From positions 7,620 through 71,619 of the forward strand of contig MENI01000073.1 of NCBI GenBank assembly GCA_001768195.1: a stretch of DNA of 64,000 nt. Direction: 5' to 3'. The notes beneath the pieces were generated by a model. It worked only from the letters and a program-made list of their open reading frames with translations, did no database searches and had not been told where the DNA came from. A program made the position numbers and the translations under genes. Shown here piece after piece: positions 25,658-32,831 of this stretch (position 1 is the stretch's first letter; the number at the start of each line of letters is the position of its first letter). The DNA comes from Bacteroidetes bacterium GWA2_40_15. GTDB lineage: Bacteria; Bacteroidota; Bacteroidia; Bacteroidales; VadinHA17.

Positions 25658-26788
25658 CTATGCATTTATCATCATTGGCATCAGAAGCATGAGCAGGTCT
25701 TCTGATTCATTATCGGTTGAAACGGGAAGAAAAAGGCCTGCCCTTGTCGGATCAGCCAGTTCAATCATAACATCCTGTGAACCAATGTTTGCAAGTATCT
25801 CAAGCAAAAATACCGACTTGAATCCAATCTCAATATCCTCTCCCTCATACTGGCATTTTAACCTTTCATATGCAGAAATCGAAAAATCAATATCCTGCGC
25901 AGAAACCATTATCTGGTTGCCTTTAAGCTGGAGCTTTACAAGGTTGCTTGCCTGATTTGAAAAGACAGAAACTCTTTTGAGAGTATTATAGAACTCTACC
26001 CTGTCGACAGTTATCTTTCTGGGATTATTTTTTGGAATAACGGAATTATAATTGGGATAATTACCTTCAACAAGCCGGCAAACTACCTTATGATCACTCA
26101 AAGTAAAGAAGGCATTCTTATCATCAAAGTCAACCTTAACAGCCCCCTCTTCTTTCGGGAGAATATTTTTAAGCAGGGAAGCGGGTTTTTTGGGAAGAAT
26201 AAAAGAGGCGCTGTCATCAGCATGTGCATCGGTCCGCTGATATCTGACAAGCTTATGTGCATCTGATGCAACAAATGTGATCTTATCAGTTGTTGCCTCT
26301 ATAAAAACACCACCCATTACAGGCCGTAGTTCATCATCGGCTGTCGCAAAAAGTGTTTTGCTGATACCTGCCAGTAATACATCAGCATTAATACTGAACG
26401 AGAATTTCTTATCCTTTTTGATTGCAGGAAGTGCCGGAAAATCAATTCCATTCTGCCCTACCACATTGAATTTCCCGTTCTCGGAACTTATGACAACCGC
26501 CATTGTACCAAGATTTATTTCAAAAGTCAATGGCTGTACTGAAAATTCCTTCAGAGTGTCAAGGAGTATCCGTGCAGGAAGCGCTATTGTACCATCTCCG
26601 TCTGTATTTTCAAGTTTCATCCTGGTTATAAGTGTCGATTCAAGATCGGATGCAGTTATCTCAAGATCATTTCCTGAAAGGTTAAAAAGAAAGTTGTCAA
26701 GGATAGGAAGGGTATTCTTGGAACTTATTACCCTGCTTATAGCCTGAAGATGACCTAGAAGTTCAGAGCTGGATACTACAAATTTCAT
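25658..26788 (-). CDS. dnaN: DNA polymerase III subunit beta (sliding clamp)
   Basis: 376 aa. MKFVVSSSELLGHLQAISRVISSKNTLPILDNFLF and three-domain length typical of DnaN. Confidence 0.95.
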   Translation of the reverse strand: MKFVVSSSELLGHLQAISRVISSKNTLPILDNFLFNLSGNDLEITASDLESTLITRMKLENTDGDGTIALPARILLDTLKEFSVQPLTFEINLGTMAVVISSENGKFNVVGQNGIDFPALPAIKKDKKFSFSINADVLLAGISKTLFATADDELRPVMGGVFIEATTDKITFVASDAHKLVRYQRTDAHADDSASFILPKKPASLLKNILPKEEGAVKVDFDDKNAFFTLSDHKVVCRLVEGNYPNYNSVIPKNNPRKITVDRVEFYNTLKRVSVFSNQASNLVKLQLKGNQIMVSAQDIDFSISAYERLKCQYEGEDIEIGFKSVFLLEILANIGSQDVMIELADPTRAGLFLPVSTDNESEDLLMLLMPMMINA

Positions 26789-27065
26789 ACTTGTATGGTT
26801 TTTAAATTATTTTTCCGTCAGATATTTTCGCTATTCAGATCAAAATCAATAACTTGAAGCATATGATCACTTCAAATCTCAATTATCAATATTACAAAAA
26901 AAAACTATTCCTTCAAAGTATAAAATAAAAGCAATTTTGAATCATTTTGCAGTAATTTTAACCTCTCTTAAAATTAGAAGTCCAAATATCTTGTATTGAC
27001 CCCCCATCCCCCAAGGGCATAGGCGTCTACTTAAGAATAGTATTGTAAATACAGAGATTAAAAAA

Positions 27066-27153
27066 GTTTCCCCTCCTTTTCAAGGAGGGGTGGCCGCAAC
27101 ACATAGATAGTTAATGTTTTACGAAAGGCTGGTTGCGGCCGGGGTGGTTGATT
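27066..27153 (+). repeat. Double-hairpin module, subtype 1
   Basis: Same layout as 5612-5698. Second stem is GGCCGCAAC...GTTGCGGCC. Confidence 0.85.
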
Positions 27154-27177
27154 GGTTGGTTTATCAGATCGATTCTT

Positions 27178-27294
27178 TTATTTTTTTGATTTTATCATTT
27201 CCCATAATGCTGCCTCAGCCGAAGTGGACCTGTTCCTGAGAGATGATCTGAAAGATTTAAGGCCCTTTCTGTTGAAGTGGGTTTTGTTTTTCAT
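27178..27294 (-). pseudogene. DUF559 N-terminal remnant (38 codons)
   Basis: MKNKTHFNRKGLKSFRSSLRNRSTSAEAALWEMIKSKK* matches the DUF559 N-terminal LR.N.T.AE..LW helix. The catalytic core is missing. Confidence 0.7.
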
Positions 27295-27321
27295 AGATAT
27301 AATGGTAAAAAGAAATGAATA

Positions 27322-27408
27322 AATCAATCACCCCGGCCGGGAAATGGACCTTGTAAAGATCAGATAATCAGCGGTCCCGGCCACCCCTCCTTGAAAAGGA
27401 GGGGAAAC
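27322..27408 (-). repeat. Double-hairpin module, subtype 2
   Basis: Same layout as 5937-6022. Inner end is GGTGATTGAT (one substitution). Confidence 0.85.
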
Positions 27409-27613
27409 TTTGTTTATTTCATCAATTCAACCACTCTTAAACTATTATGAACGAACTTAAATTAGATATTAAAAGCCGTTTGCCTTTATTGATCCTCCCT
27501 GTAAACCTTTTTCAGATTGCTTAAGTTAACGCCTATGCCCCTAGGGGGTCCCCATAACCATCGGGATAGGGGTGGAATTTAAAGAAATAATGTTTAATCA
27601 TATTTAATCATTT

Positions 27614-28585
27614 CTACTCACGAAAGAAATAGGATCTTTTCTTCAGTACAGGATCAATATCAAAATAGCGGACGATGAAGAAATCATCATTCGCCTGGGT
27701 TTTACCAAGAAGCCTGTCGGTATCAGGGACCTTTTCTCCATTCTCGTATTTTGTTTTTTCCCATAAACTCAGGATTGTTGTATAACCTGCTGAAGATATA
27801 AGCGTTATCCTGTAGAAAGGATCCCGTTTCCCAGTTAAGGATTTCTCCTCAATGCTTAAGTCGAATACCCATGCTTCAAAAGGGATCCAGGTGAAGTAAG
27901 AAAGGTAACGGATAACCCGGGAGGTGTCCCATCCCGACAGTTCATTTTTTGTCCCGGAAAACGAATACCTGCCCTCCTTTTTGAATATCGCAAATGATAA
28001 GGTGGTATCTGTCAGATTTTCGAAATTCACAGAAGTGATCTCCGATGGAAGCAGATTGAATATAGTATATGGCTGCCAGAAAAGCTCGTTCAGAGTAAAG
28101 CCTGAACCTACATTAACCTCATATCCCGGAATATGCACTATAAAAGGTTTTGCATTCTCCTTCAGCTTCATAATATTTCCGTAATTATTGGAACCGGTCT
28201 TATATACCCTGAAAGACTTAATCATCTTTCTGCCCTCATAAACCTTTACCGTAACCGGAACTATCTCCTTTTCAGTAATTTCATTTTCAAAGAAATCCCC
28301 GGAGACTGGCGATTTTATTTTAGCTTCAGTTAATATCCTGATAATAAAGTTTATACTGCTTTTACGTGCACTTTCTTTACCATTTATCAGCCACTCTTCT
28401 CCTGACTTCTCAAGCTTAAGCTCCTGCCCATTCTGTGAAAGCACTATTCTGGTAATCTCCCTCTCCGGTTTTGCTGAGAAATCACTGTTTGACCTTCCGA
28501 ATGGGGTTCTGGTTCTTGAAAGAAAAATCAGAAGGAAAAGAACTATGCCTGAAACTGAAATAATGATAATTATTGCTTTTTTCAT
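27614..28585 (-). CDS. DUF4340-like protein downstream of gldG
   Basis: N-terminal anchor MKKAIIIIISVSGIVLFLLIF. 4-nt overlap with the gldG stop. Position typical of DUF4340 partners; family call is tentative. Confidence 0.5.
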   Translation of the reverse strand: MKKAIIIIISVSGIVLFLLIFLSRTRTPFGRSNSDFSAKPEREITRIVLSQNGQELKLEKSGEEWLINGKESARKSSINFIIRILTEAKIKSPVSGDFFENEITEKEIVPVTVKVYEGRKMIKSFRVYKTGSNNYGNIMKLKENAKPFIVHIPGYEVNVGSGFTLNELFWQPYTIFNLLPSEITSVNFENLTDTTLSFAIFKKEGRYSFSGTKNELSGWDTSRVIRYLSYFTWIPFEAWVFDLSIEEKSLTGKRDPFYRITLISSAGYTTILSLWEKTKYENGEKVPDTDRLLGKTQANDDFFIVRYFDIDPVLKKRSYFFRE

Positions 28586-30306: not shown

Positions 30307-31050
30307 TTAGTTTTTTATCCTCCATTTACGTGATAACAAGACCATTCTGGTAGCCTCGTTAAACAAGATCACTACAGAGACAAAATACACCACATCCCTG
30401 ATATCCAGGACTCCTCTGCTCATTGATTTATAATGTTCATTTATCCCAAGCCTGATAATGAATTCATCAAAATTCTTTAATCCCGGGAGATAGGCAAGAG
30501 AATCGAATCCCATAAAAAGCATAAAACATAAAAGAACCGCAGCGATAAATGCAATAACCTGATTATCTGTTAATGACGAGGCAAATATCCCAACAGCAGC
30601 ATATACCGAGGCAAGAAAGAATAATCCGGTATATGAACCAATGGTACCTCCTTTATCCAGATTTCCCGGGACTTCACCCAGCATATAAACTGTAACATAA
30701 TAAATGACACCTGGTAGCAGTGCAAGCAGTACAAGGACGACTGAAGCCAAATATTTACCCCATATAATTCCACGTTCGGTTATTGGTCTCGAAAAGATCA
30801 GTTCAATTGTTCCCAGTCTTTTTTCCTCGGCAATCATTCTCATTGTAACAGCCGGTACAAGGAACAGGAATATCCATGGCGATAGCAGAAAGAGAGTATC
30901 CAGTCCGGCGTAACCATTATCAAATATATTCCACTCACCCGGGAATATCCACATAAAAAGAGAGTTTACCAGGAGATAGACTGTAATTACAATGTATCCT
31001 GTCAGGCTGCTGAAGAAACCATTAATCTCTTTTCTGAAAATTGCGAACAT
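30307..31050 (-). CDS. gldF: Gliding-motility-associated ABC transporter permease GldF
   Basis: MFAIFRKEINGFFSSLTGYIVI...AEEKRLGTIELIFSRPI is the ABC-2 permease pattern of GldF. Confidence 0.8.
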   Translation of the reverse strand: MFAIFRKEINGFFSSLTGYIVITVYLLVNSLFMWIFPGEWNIFDNGYAGLDTLFLLSPWIFLFLVPAVTMRMIAEEKRLGTIELIFSRPITERGIIWGKYLASVVLVLLALLPGVIYYVTVYMLGEVPGNLDKGGTIGSYTGLFFLASVYAAVGIFASSLTDNQVIAFIAAVLLCFMLFMGFDSLAYLPGLKNFDEFIIRLGINEHYKSMSRGVLDIRDVVYFVSVVILFNEATRMVLLSRKWRIKN

Positions 31051-31245
31051 ATGATACTAATTATCGTTTAAAATACCGTTCTTAAATACAATAATCTTCC
31101 TTCATCTGTCCTCCTGAACTTCTTTGCCGTTTTGCCCCCCTGAAGGGGCATAACTGTCAAGCTAAGGAGTTATAAAATGGTTTTACAGGAAGGAACAATA
31201 AAGGCAAAAGGATTTTAATATTGATATTCAGTCCATTTATAACAT

Positions 31246-31331
31246 TTTCCCCTCCTTTTGAAGGAGGGGTGGCCGCAGCACAATGATAGTTATAATATTG
31301 CAAAGTCTGGTTGCGGCCGGGGTGGTTGATT
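31246..31331 (+). repeat. Double-hairpin module, subtype 1
   Basis: Same layout. Second stem GGCCGCAGC...GGTTGCGGCC with a G-T wobble position. Confidence 0.85.
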
Positions 31332-31376
31332 GGTTCATCAGATCGATTCTTTGTTTTCATTGATAACTTTACTTAT

Positions 31377-31527
31377 CTAACTTATTAAATATTCAGGTTG
31401 CTTGAATACAAATCTGTTTTCAAATCTTAATATAGTGAATCCAGAGTTCTTCAGGTATTTATCCCTGTTTCCATCTTCTGTATTATTTGGTATTCCCAGT
31501 GGGAATCTCCGTCAAGTTCAATTAAAT
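31377..31527 (-). pseudogene. DUF559 C-terminal remnant with a frameshift
   Basis: LIELDGDSHWEYQ... in one frame, then ...RDKYLKNSGFTILRFENRFVFKQPEYLIS* in the next frame. Confidence 0.7.
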
Positions 31528-31610
31528 CAACCACCCCGGCCGGGAAAAAACTCTGTAAACATCAGATAATCAATTATCCCAGCCACCCCTCCTTCAAAAG
31601 GAGGGGAAAC
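31526..31610 (-). repeat. Double-hairpin module, subtype 2
   Basis: Same layout. One stem substitution (GGCTGGGA instead of GGCCGGGA). Confidence 0.85.
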
Positions 31611-31679
31611 TTTTTCTAGTCTCCGCATTTACAATAGTACTCTTAGGATGACAGCTATACCTTCAGGGGGTGAAGGCTG

Positions 31680-32831
31680 CTAAGGTCCTAAAAGTACTTT
31701 TGCATATCGTATATTTGTTATTATCACACCCTTATAATAAAACTCAATAATCTGCTGAAAGGTATTGCCTCTTGTCGCCATTTCCATTGCACCTTCCTGG
31801 CATAATCCAACTCCATGGCCATATCCTTTTCCCCTTAATATCACGGAGTCTCCGGCTGCTATTACAGAGAAGAAAGAAGAACGCAGCTTCAGATCCTTCC
31901 TTATTTTCTCGAATGGCATGGTAAATGAACCTGCTTTATAATCAACCCATCTTTTGTTCTGGTAAAAACTAAATAAAGCCGGATCGCTTATTTTGCCGGT
32001 ATATCCAGATTTTTCAAGATATTCAATCCACTCTTCCGTGCTCATCTTTGTTTCCCATGTTGCATTCCTTGAATTCAGGCAATAAGGATCGGGTATGCTC
32101 GTGAGATAGGGTTGCTCTGTTACCCATACAATCTCAGACGATACAGTCATGCCCCCGCAGTTTGAGTGAAAAGCAGATATGATCAGTGAACTGTCCTTGT
32201 CGAGTATCACCTGACCATGAGTTTCGAGTAAAGCTGAATTTATCAACGAATCTGATGATACTCCGTTAAAAGCCTGACAATGTGTGTTATCACATACACT
32301 AAATTTATCGTGCAGATGCTTGTCAAGGTGTTTATACAGGTAGGTTCTGGCTATAATTGCCTGTGTCTTGAAATACTCCTTATGCTTTTGTGTACCACCT
32401 TCGGCTCTGACAACTCCGGCGATATAACTTTCCACATCGCACCTGTTTATAAGTACAAGGGTCTCAAGATCGGGATAGCAGATCAAATCTCCCTTATAAT
32501 ATTGCCTTACAGGGGCCTGGCTATTCACTCTGAGGGAAAACGAAGCGTTTTCTGTTTTGGCCTGAATATTCAATGAATCTGCAATATATCCTTTACCGTT
32601 CCGGGATTTAACAGCCAGTCTGCCATCGTACTTTGTAATGACAACCAGGTCATTTTTCCTGAATACATCCGGATCTCCCATGAATCCATTGATTTCATAT
32701 TCCCCTTCAGTAACGGCAAAAACAACTGACTCAGGTGTCAGTGATGCAAACAGGCGCACTTTTATCTGCCCCTTTATCAGGCCGGTGCCAGGTAAAAGAA
32801 GCATCCAGACTAAAACCAAATATCTGATCAT
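31680..32831 (-). CDS. SpoIID/LytB domain-containing protein
   Basis: FHSNCGGMTVSSEIVW...PYL and YGHGVGLCQEGA are SpoIID-domain motifs. Signal peptide present. Confidence 0.8.
   Translation of the reverse strand: MIRYLVLVWMLLLPGTGLIKGQIKVRLFASLTPESVVFAVTEGEYEINGFMGDPDVFRKNDLVVITKYDGRLAVKSRNGKGYIADSLNIQAKTENASFSLRVNSQAPVRQYYKGDLICYPDLETLVLINRCDVESYIAGVVRAEGGTQKHKEYFKTQAIIARTYLYKHLDKHLHDKFSVCDNTHCQAFNGVSSDSLINSALLETHGQVILDKDSSLIISAFHSNCGGMTVSSEIVWVTEQPYLTSIPDPYCLNSRNATWETKMSTEEWIEYLEKSGYTGKISDPALFSFYQNKRWVDYKAGSFTMPFEKIRKDLKLRSSFFSVIAAGDSVILRGKGYGHGVGLCQEGAMEMATRGNTFQQIIEFYYKGVIITNIRYAKVLLGP

Follow-up and report, generated by a model that had tools for sequence, protein, structure and literature searches.

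Orientation isomers of a DUF559-encoding, nested-palindrome transposable element in Bacteroidales are best read as rare and lineage-bound

Inverted repeats are known to promote template switching and short-homology recombination, and Bacteroidales use global invertases that act on distant loci. Flip-flop isomers of an asymmetric centre are familiar from the plastid inverted repeat, the 2-micron plasmid, parvovirus termini, and RecA-independent inversion in Escherichia coli plasmids. Among extragenic palindromes, REPINs are about 100 nt long, non-coding, and mobilized by a single-copy HUH/Y1 RAYT encoded elsewhere (PMC3733652; bioRxiv 10.1101/2021.07.10.451892). In a domain-wide screen of predicted programmed inversions, from which repeats with many genomic copies had been removed, DUF559 was among the enriched annotations, without discussion (PMC9881135). 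Here, we analyzed a 64-kb stretch of Bacteroidetes bacterium GWA2_40_15 (contig MENI01000073.1; the window), in which a remnant of a DUF559 gene at 31135-31670 is enclosed by inverted repeats. The original prediction for this region, made from the sequence alone, was that it has the geometry of an invertible DNA switch.

The coordinates 31135-31670 correspond to element IV, whose terminal repeats lie at 31149-31166 and 31642-31659, and this element is one of five copies in the 64 kb, including a partial copy (III, ~20198-20446). According to our preferred reading, to which we assign a probability of about 0.7 as a whole, the region belongs to a transposable element family with a wide distribution among groundwater and sediment Bacteroidales and is a non-autonomous copy that has lost internal sequence; the flip isomers of the family would go back to rare events in which a segment between the nested inverted repeats of the element itself was inverted.

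The family was collected by a 17-mer scan of one genome per species and a hairpin-1 motif scan of metagenomes, which gave 227 loci (designated L below), raised to 236 by later look-ups. These loci, mostly from Bacteroidales metagenome-assembled genomes (MAGs) of groundwater, sediment, and soil, held 257 modules and 103 module-core-module elements, 86 of which were distinct. The canonical element is ~770 nt long and consists of an 18-nt terminal inverted repeat (TIR; CATAGCCGTCAACTTAAG), a short arm (~35 nt), an S2 module, the DUF559 gene (a core of 415 nt encoding 127 amino acids), an S1 or S3 module in inverse orientation, a long arm (~80 nt), and the second TIR. DUF559 is its only open reading frame (ORF). 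The TIR was present at both ends with four or fewer mismatches, and the distance from TIR to module distinguished short arms (~53 nt) from long arms (~97 nt). Since each module comprises two hairpins and ends, where it abuts the core, in an invariant 17-mer, the element as a whole forms a nested palindrome around an asymmetric centre. Folded as single-stranded DNA, modules formed two local hairpins each (z-score, -3.8 to -4.8), and the whole element formed one long nested hairpin (-89 kcal/mol; z-score, -7.5). Most copies were internal deletion derivatives that had kept both ends, in the manner of miniature inverted-repeat transposable elements (MITEs).

Several lines of evidence pointed to transposition. 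A 10-bp direct repeat matching at 9 or more of 10 positions lay directly outside the TIRs in 9 of 40 elements, compared with 1.1% of controls in which left and right flanks were deliberately mismatched (P = 4e-10). The duplicated targets were 10-mers rich in G/C tracts, such as CCCCAAACCC, GGGACAAGGG, and CCCTTTACTC, and insertions were found in many different intergenic 10-mers of this kind. In relatives whose GldF is 85 to 89% identical, the gene order surE-lpxB-spoIID-gldF-gldG-dnaN was kept, and the gaps that hold copies IV (spoIID-gldF) and II (upstream of dnaN) in the window measured 54 to 403 nt and contained no element (L236, L237, L238, and JGI 3300075153). In addition, locus L202 and window copy V shared a ~97% identical module-core-module block with the same internal deletion but had different arms and flanks. 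With its TIRs, 10-bp target-site duplication, and insertion polymorphism, the ~770-nt unit is a transposable element, of which the window copies are MITE-like deletion derivatives.

In the window, the 17-mer CGGCCGGGGTGGTTGAT occurred 10 times (0.02 expected) and the CCCCTCC-loop-GGAGGGG hairpin 9 times (0 expected). Together they bound nine modules of 81 to 83 nt each, which fell into the two types that had been predicted, as follows.

5615-5696, plus strand: S1 module (stem GGCCGCAG..)
27070-27152, plus strand: S1 module
31249-31330, plus strand: S1 module
54899-54980, minus strand: S1 module
5937-6018, minus strand: S2 module (stem GGCCGGGA..)
27323-27404, minus strand: S2 module
31526-31606, minus strand: S2 module
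54526-54607, plus strand: S2 module
54629-54710, plus strand: S2 module

The original description of the two types as "subtypes" called for a correction. Among 202 distinct modules, positions 1 to 6 of stem 2 were paired in 96 to 100%, and compensatory changes were present at positions 3, 5, 6, and 7, with double changes at position 3 (C-G/T-A, 179/14), position 6 (G-C/C-G, 130/63), and position 7 (G-C/A-T, 102/61). When the partner strand was slid by 1 to 3 nt as a control, pairing fell from 80% to 18 to 55%. Because stem 2 covaries and loses its pairing on sliding, S1 and S2 are alternative base pairs at positions 6 to 8 of a conserved 8-bp stem, together with different loops. The two modules of one element nearly always differed in type, and no S1/S1 or S2/S2 pair was seen among 71 oriented elements.

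Convergent module pairs enclosed four cores in the window: I (5697-5936), II (27153-27322), IV (31331-31525), and V (54711-54898). The 17-nt inverted repeat abutting the core, which forms part of the imperfectly inverted 81- to 83-nt modules, was perfect in I, IV, and V and had one mismatch in II. Copy IV and the other copies were composed as follows.

31149..31166, plus strand: left TIR of copy IV (CATAACTGTCAAGCTAAG), from the TIR scan
31167..31248, plus strand: long arm of copy IV (includes AAGGCAAAAGGATTTTAAT), with a TIR-to-module distance of 100 nt, the long-arm class
31249..31330, plus strand: S1 module of copy IV, with hairpin 1 (CCCCTCC/GGAGGGG), an 8-bp stem 2 (GGCCGCAG), and the inner 17-mer CGGCCGGGGTGGTTGAT
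31331..31525, minus strand: core of copy IV, a DUF559 pseudogene covering residues ~65-121 of 127 amino acids, from translation, tblastn to a full-length relative, and Pfam
31526..31606, minus strand: S2 module of copy IV (stem GGCTGGGA), inward-facing
31607..31659, minus strand: short arm and right TIR of copy IV (TIR at 31642-31659)
5503..6071, plus strand: copy I, core-flipped (beta) isomer, with degenerate left end and long arm, S1-beta 5615-5696, core 5697-5936, S2 5937-6018, short arm, and TIR 6054-6071
27018..27537, minus strand: copy II, module-core-module block flipped relative to the arms, with TIR 27018-27035, short arm, S1 27070-27152, core 27153-27322, S2 27323-27404, linker and module remnant 27405-27437, long arm, and TIR 27520-27537
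54473..55043, minus strand: copy V, core-flipped (beta) isomer, with TIR, short arm, tandem S2 54526-54607 and 54629-54710, core 54711-54898, S1-beta 54899-54980, short arm, and TIR 55026-55043
20198..20446, plus strand: copy III (partial), with TIR 20198-20215, short arm, an unrelated nested palindromic element 20231-20415, a 21-nt linker, and an S1 inner-end remnant 20430-20446

Before the left TIR of copy IV lies the G/C-rich flank CCTGAAGGGG; it represents a degenerate target-site duplication of 10 bp, the left and right flanks matching at 8 of 10 positions as a direct repeat. As single-stranded DNA, its S1 module folded at -18.9 kcal/mol (z-score, -4.3). All four window cores were truncated or frameshifted DUF559 pseudogenes. 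Translation placed C-terminal remnants on the plus strand in copy I (..LRLGFTVLRFENRFVFRDPEFEK; residues ~53-108) and on the minus strand in copies IV (..LKNSGFTILRFENRFVFKQPEYLIS) and V (residues 82-122), and an N-terminal remnant, the first 42 residues, on the minus strand in copy II, where it is joined to the 3' end of the gene. In copy IV, the N-terminal half was deleted and a frameshift and premature stops were present. Pfam scores for the fragments against DUF559 were 20.8 bits (IV), 20.2 (V), 16.9 (I), and 13.8 (II), with a cut-off of 20.6.

This mapping bore out the rearrangements that had been read from the sequence. Copies I and IV share one plus-strand frame (long arm, S1, core, S2, short arm), and their cores run in opposite directions. 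The junction at the 5' end of the gene (GGTGGTTGAT/TTAATTG) adjoins S1 in copy I and S2 in copy IV, and the 3' junction adjoins S2 in I and V and S1 in II and IV, exactly as had been assigned. In I and IV, the long arm (AAGGCAAA.GG.TTTTAAT) is the neighbor of S1; in II, it lies on the side of S2, with a module remnant and a 21-nt linker in between, which confirmed a nested, second rearrangement. That the core has inverted at least once relative to the module pair was supported; the proposed inversion of the module pair held as a reversal, at least once, of the module-core-module block relative to the arms. Both inverted segments are bounded by inverted repeats.

For the census of orientation, the direction of the gene could be called in 71 elements. 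With modules listed from the 5' to the 3' side of the gene, the counts were as follows.

S2 then S1: 31 elements
S2 then S3: 16 elements
S1 then S2: 4 elements
S1 then S2c (a separate sub-family): 3 elements
S4 then S2: 3 elements
other module pairings, once each: 11 elements

Among the S1/S2 and S1/S3 types, the 5' end of the gene adjoined S2 in 47 elements and S1 in 4, so that the two isomers are far from equilibrium. No flip was found among the 16 typed elements of the S3 sub-family, and in the 12 of these in which both arm distances could be measured the arrangement was canonical every time. The four flipped elements were window copies I and V, L189, and L202. In I and L202, the long arm adjoins S1 as in the canonical frame, so that flipped elements are canonical elements with the core alone reversed. 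All four carried the S1 loop sub-variant S1-beta (..CAGATAATTAATATGTTACAATGA..), had common gene 3' ends (..KSEIRKVLNK..), and grouped together in a neighbor-joining tree of the last 95 nt of the core. S1-beta was upstream of the gene in 4 cases and downstream in 2, compared with 3 and 30 for other S1 modules (Fisher P = 0.0055). The flipped elements had three different internal deletions (I, V/L202, and L189), which implies that the flip came before their multiplication. The second-level rearrangement, in which the block is reversed relative to the arms, was found in window copy II, L132, and L129. Flips are therefore best read as rare and lineage-bound.

The orientation of individual loci was stable. 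Twenty-four contigs from independent Rifle assemblies, obtained by a gldF look-up, were read; in the 8 assemblies with DNA compared, loci II and IV were collinear with the window at 99.4 to 100% identity. Locus V was collinear in 2 further assemblies, and four other loci had the same orientation in 2 assemblies each. In sum, at the consensus level no orientation difference between assemblies was present at 7 loci, each of them represented in 2 to 24 independent assemblies. An apparent difference at copy II in L112 was traced to N-filled scaffolding gaps and was discarded. No recombinase domain was matched in the 20 window ORFs scanned, and none was present in precomputed Pfam listings for further genes of the 64-kb window, in agreement with the earlier statement that the window lacks an invertase gene. 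No partial coding sequences were found at the repeat borders, and because the window cores are all pseudogenes, flipping alters no product.

Of the features that define an inverton, the region showed inverted repeats directly flanking the segment, whereas both orientations at one locus were not seen at the consensus level and inversion did not alter payload coding, the cores being DUF559 remnants. The predicted switch geometry stood in that 17-nt inverted repeats abut the core; switch behavior did not. In view of the 47:4 isomer ratio, the sub-variant linkage, the stable loci, the pseudogene cores, and the lack of a recombinase match among the window genes examined, the region is not supported as a regulated on/off switch at individual loci. 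The suggestion that the inversions may be ancient was favored by the data. An alignment of copies had also been proposed: flipped copies do share S1-beta and group together, but the grouping is weakly supported and S1-beta occurs in unflipped elements too (see below). Old, clean lineages, which the original prediction had named as evidence against itself, were thus approximated, though not fully, since copies exchange parts.

Nested inverted repeats exactly bound each inverted segment. At the first level, a crossover in the 17-nt inner ends would invert the core alone; at the second, a crossover in the ~33-nt outer hairpin region would invert the module-core-module block. Replication template switching or short-homology recombination is the most likely route for both. 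Each inverted form would then have been inherited and multiplied by transposition, founding a sub-lineage. On this scheme, I and V would represent one flipped sub-lineage, IV the canonical form, and II the second-level rearrangement. Inversion would be neutral for the element, which would still be mobile because its cis-acting ends are unchanged.

Several observations weigh against this reading of rare inversions within a transposable element. Assemblies report the consensus only, and a minority orientation in less than ~10 to 20% of cells would be invisible. The flipped clade had a weak bootstrap of 37% (74/200 replicates, 95 nt), so that we relied jointly on the module sub-variant, the gene 3' end, and the Fisher test. 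S1-beta was also found downstream of the gene in L160, L186, and L023, and the downstream module was the sole difference between L173 and L186; both results imply that copies exchange parts and that their history is reticulate and does not follow a clean tree. Seven elements had short arms on both sides, which inversion alone cannot yield. As for transposition, the window copies had imperfect duplications (7 to 8 of 10 matches), no recognized transposase was encoded in the element, and 1.6 Mb of loci yielded none with the same TIR.

We considered, and rejected, a conventional transposase encoded by an autonomous partner with the same TIR, as the transposases in or beside long copies belonged to independent insertion sequences (ISs). 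In L023 (372-2105), a DDE_Tnp_1_4 IS with its own inverted repeats and duplication lies in the 5' region of DUF559; in L057 (2770-3735), an IS1595-like IS with its own inverted repeats and an 8-bp duplication (CTTTTGAA) lies in the hairpin-1 loop; and in L128 (12640-14281), a separate IS with a transposase ORF lies beside a solo TIR. The core of L103 (371-2355) contains a group II intron reverse transcriptase. The elements attract secondary insertions.

Could the core or the module-core-module block instead be a separately mobile or homing cassette, copied by double-strand-break repair into a palindromic landing pad (a module or arm pair) in either orientation? Such a cassette could land either way, the homologous sequences on its two sides being inverted repeats of one another. 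The block common to L202 and copy V, bounded exactly at AAGTTT/CCCCTCC and GGAGGGG/AAACTT between differing arms, would suit this explanation, as would L173 and L186, which combine the same upstream module and core with different downstream modules, and the arms that host other cassettes (element X in copy III and L236). Internal deletions are many and varied yet leave both junctions in place, which is reminiscent of abortive gap repair, and Vsr-like nucleases are known homing endonucleases (PMC2677866; I-Bth0305I as cited in PMC9403480). Against this, free orientation predicts a ratio of about 50:50 rather than 47:4, the flipped copies share one sub-variant, and the S3 sub-family was free of flips and canonical in its measured arms. 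Empty module or arm pairs were not found among the loci, where the smallest cores (47 to 57 nt) were deletion remnants or other palindromes, and a target-site duplication, not a product of homing, flanks the entire element. We regard the cassette as an unlikely explanation.

An active, programmed switch, in which a recombinase encoded elsewhere flips the core between the 17-nt repeats and both orientations coexist in the population, is less probable still. It would account for perfect 17-nt inverted repeats directly abutting a segment of 170 to 415 nt, and a remote enzyme is conceivable in Bacteroidales, given their global invertases; moreover, "DUF559 domain-containing protein" was enriched among predicted programmed inversions with an odds ratio of 14.3 (Table 1 of PMC9881135). 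The single orientation in every independent assembly of the 7 loci, the skewed and lineage-bound isomers, the pseudogene cores without an adjacent partial gene or payload, the absence of a recombinase domain from the window ORFs and Pfam listings examined, and the membership of the repeats in a transposon with a target-site duplication all speak against it, and we consider it very improbable. An assembly artefact, in which short-read assemblers oriented the core arbitrarily between inverted repeats, has next to no credibility, even though contigs often break here (L240 terminates within copy I, and L243 where copy V begins) and copy II of L112 is interrupted by N gaps. Next to the core, no more than 17 nt are identical between the two inverted sides, less than the length of assembly k-mers and reads, which means that the data themselves fix the orientation; NCBI MAGs, k127 ENA re-assemblies, and JGI agreed on it; and the same architectures occurred on 0.4- to 1.8-Mb contigs of other MAGs (L025, L045, and L066).

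In addition to its remnants in the window, the DUF559 gene was found at full length (cores of 403 to 425 nt) in 23 elements, 16 of which had an intact ORF of 113 to 139 amino acids, mostly 125 to 129. The median pairwise ratio of nonsynonymous to synonymous substitution rates (dN/dS) was 0.17, which indicates that the protein is kept by purifying selection. The full-length relative L041 matched Pfam PF04480 (DUF559) at 116.9 bits (cut-off, 20.6; E = 4.9e-34) over profile positions 5-108 of 109, and a full-length protein matched PDB 3HRL, a Neisseria "endonuclease-like protein" (E = 9e-23). These sequence matches to Pfam and 3HRL are unambiguous and assign the product to the DUF559 family of Vsr-like PD-(D/E)XK endonucleases. 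A protein search returned 2,891 homologous clusters (E of 1e-10 or lower), and many of the 120 matches listed came from contigs of a few kb or less, as would be expected of a repeat that breaks assemblies. Their source names were "very-short-patch-repair endonuclease," "DUF559," or, wrongly, "cytosine methyltransferase"; P0195 and P0196 are 126-amino-acid members of the family with the last name in public records, almost certainly a misannotation that goes back to Vsr/Dcm neighborhoods.

The nuclease itself may be the mobility enzyme of an undescribed class of bacterial transposable element, a possible but doubtful reading. It might recognize the invariant GGGGTGG-containing hairpin modules and 17-mer junctions, cut the element ends, and make 10-bp-staggered cuts in G/C-tract targets, and cleavage at the two identical inner junctions might occasionally excise the core and rejoin it reversed, giving flip isomers. 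If true, a protein with a restriction-endonuclease fold would by itself drive a transposon.

The modules do not belong to a described RNA family, as nothing in the whole window matched Rfam, and a PLSDB plasmid similarity search with a full-length element was also negative. No description of the element was found in the literature on DUF559 with inverted repeats, homing, or mobile elements or on nested palindromic Bacteroidetes MITEs.

Further observations concerned the composition of individual copies. In copy III, the TIR and short arm are normal, but the position of the module is filled by another palindromic element (GGGGCTGTTGAAAAAGTC..AACCGCAGAGGGCGCAAAGG.., 20231-20415). Relatives of it occupy the gap upstream of dnaN in L236 and the one between spoIID and gldF in L238, so that the cassettes in the arms seem to be interchangeable. 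The 21-nt linker TT[TG]ATGAAATAAACAAAGTTT comes after the inner end of a module in three copies (54519-54712, 27405-27437, and 20415-20429). In copy V it lies between the two tandem S2 modules (a 103-nt unit, 1.9 copies, 93% identity), and in copy II it follows a mostly deleted module beside the long arm. L128 has a comparable decayed second module between S1 and the long arm. A ~70-nt GCCC..GGGC palindrome was present between hairpin 1 and stem 2 in L023 (218-290) and L057 (4075-4145), and a ~50-nt palindrome (TCAAGTCT..TGGATAGACTTGA) replaces the core in L008 (7062-7111) and L027. L173 (2551-2880) and L186 (5701-6073) have a common upstream S2 and truncated core and different downstream S1 variants, and L140 and L152 have a common left flank and different right flanks; both pairs point to exchange between copies by recombination or, alternatively, to chimeras formed at the repeat during metagenome assembly.

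With regard to surroundings, the DUF559 remnant was co-oriented with the neighboring genes in 3 of 3 cases (copies I, II, and IV; 4462-7227, 25658-28585, and 30307-32831), a count restricted to copies whose two neighbors point the same way and not significant. Tandem arrays with units of 7 to 9 nt in 5 to 14 copies each were frequent in intergenic DNA of the window, for example CCTCACT x14, TGGTTGC x11, CGGTATGA x10, and AACAACAT x8, at the following positions.

5439-5494: tandem array
6148-6217: tandem array
8819-8900: tandem array
13436-13497: tandem array
16893-16991: tandem array
21721-21824: tandem array
53105-53171: tandem array

Copy I is directly flanked by two such arrays, and similar arrays flank elements in L019, L056, L001, and L075. 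Tandem arrays also occupy the orthologous spoIID-gldF gaps of the relatives L236 and L237.

The flip isomers are of modest interest; the more valuable lead is a nested-palindrome transposon family whose only gene is a Vsr-like nuclease under selection. This provides a mobile-element context for one large branch of DUF559, in which a transposon-like element with a target-site duplication carries the gene, under purifying selection, as its only cargo, and a role in DNA mobility becomes directly testable. The nested inverted repeats around DUF559 genes mimic invertons and may add to the DUF559 enrichment in PMC9881135; inversion screens should mask this family. Furthermore, the elements, their deletion derivatives, and secondary insertions fill the intergenic DNA of groundwater Bacteroidales and break assemblies, which matters for binning and comparative genomics.

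Compared with described systems, the element resembles ISs and MITEs in being multicopy and dispersed in intergenic DNA, with 18-nt TIRs, 10-bp target-site duplications, and presence/absence polymorphism, and in having a minority of full-length coding copies beside many internally deleted copies that keep both ends. It differs in that its only ORF is a 127-amino-acid DUF559 nuclease rather than a DDE, tyrosine, serine, HUH, or DEDD transposase, and in that its ends carry two covarying hairpin modules that make up a three-level nested palindrome. With invertons (fimS, hin, and Bacteroides Mpi/Tsr) it shares short inverted repeats around a segment of a few hundred base pairs and both orientations among copies; here, however, no single locus was polymorphic in orientation (consensus level), no recombinase match was found among the window genes examined and no coding payload was evident, the repeats are parts of a transposon, and orientation classes follow sub-lineages.

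Like free-standing Vsr-like (EDxHD) homing genes such as I-Bth0305I (PMC2677866; Taylor 2011 as cited in PMC9403480), the element carries a small selfish gene for a predicted Vsr-fold nuclease, and its deletion spectrum would fit break-repair copying. Homing genes, in contrast, occupy one conserved site in a gene, intron, or intein, whereas the element is found with a duplication in many unrelated intergenic 10-mers; its motif is E-x-D-x3-H (IELDGAPH) rather than EDxHD. REPIN-RAYT, REP, and BIME sequences are likewise hairpin-forming extragenic palindromes in inverted pairs that persist and multiply in a lineage, but here the nuclease gene lies inside the palindrome, with TIRs and a duplication, and no RAYT-type domain was matched in the 20 window ORFs scanned or the Pfam listings of further window genes. 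Finally, the asymmetric centre in both orientations, with breakpoints inside repeats, may be likened to the flip-flop systems of plastids, the 2-micron plasmid, parvovirus termini, and E. coli plasmids. In those systems isomers are equimolar and constantly interconverting, whereas the isomers described here appear to be rare, fixed per locus, and inherited by descendant copies.

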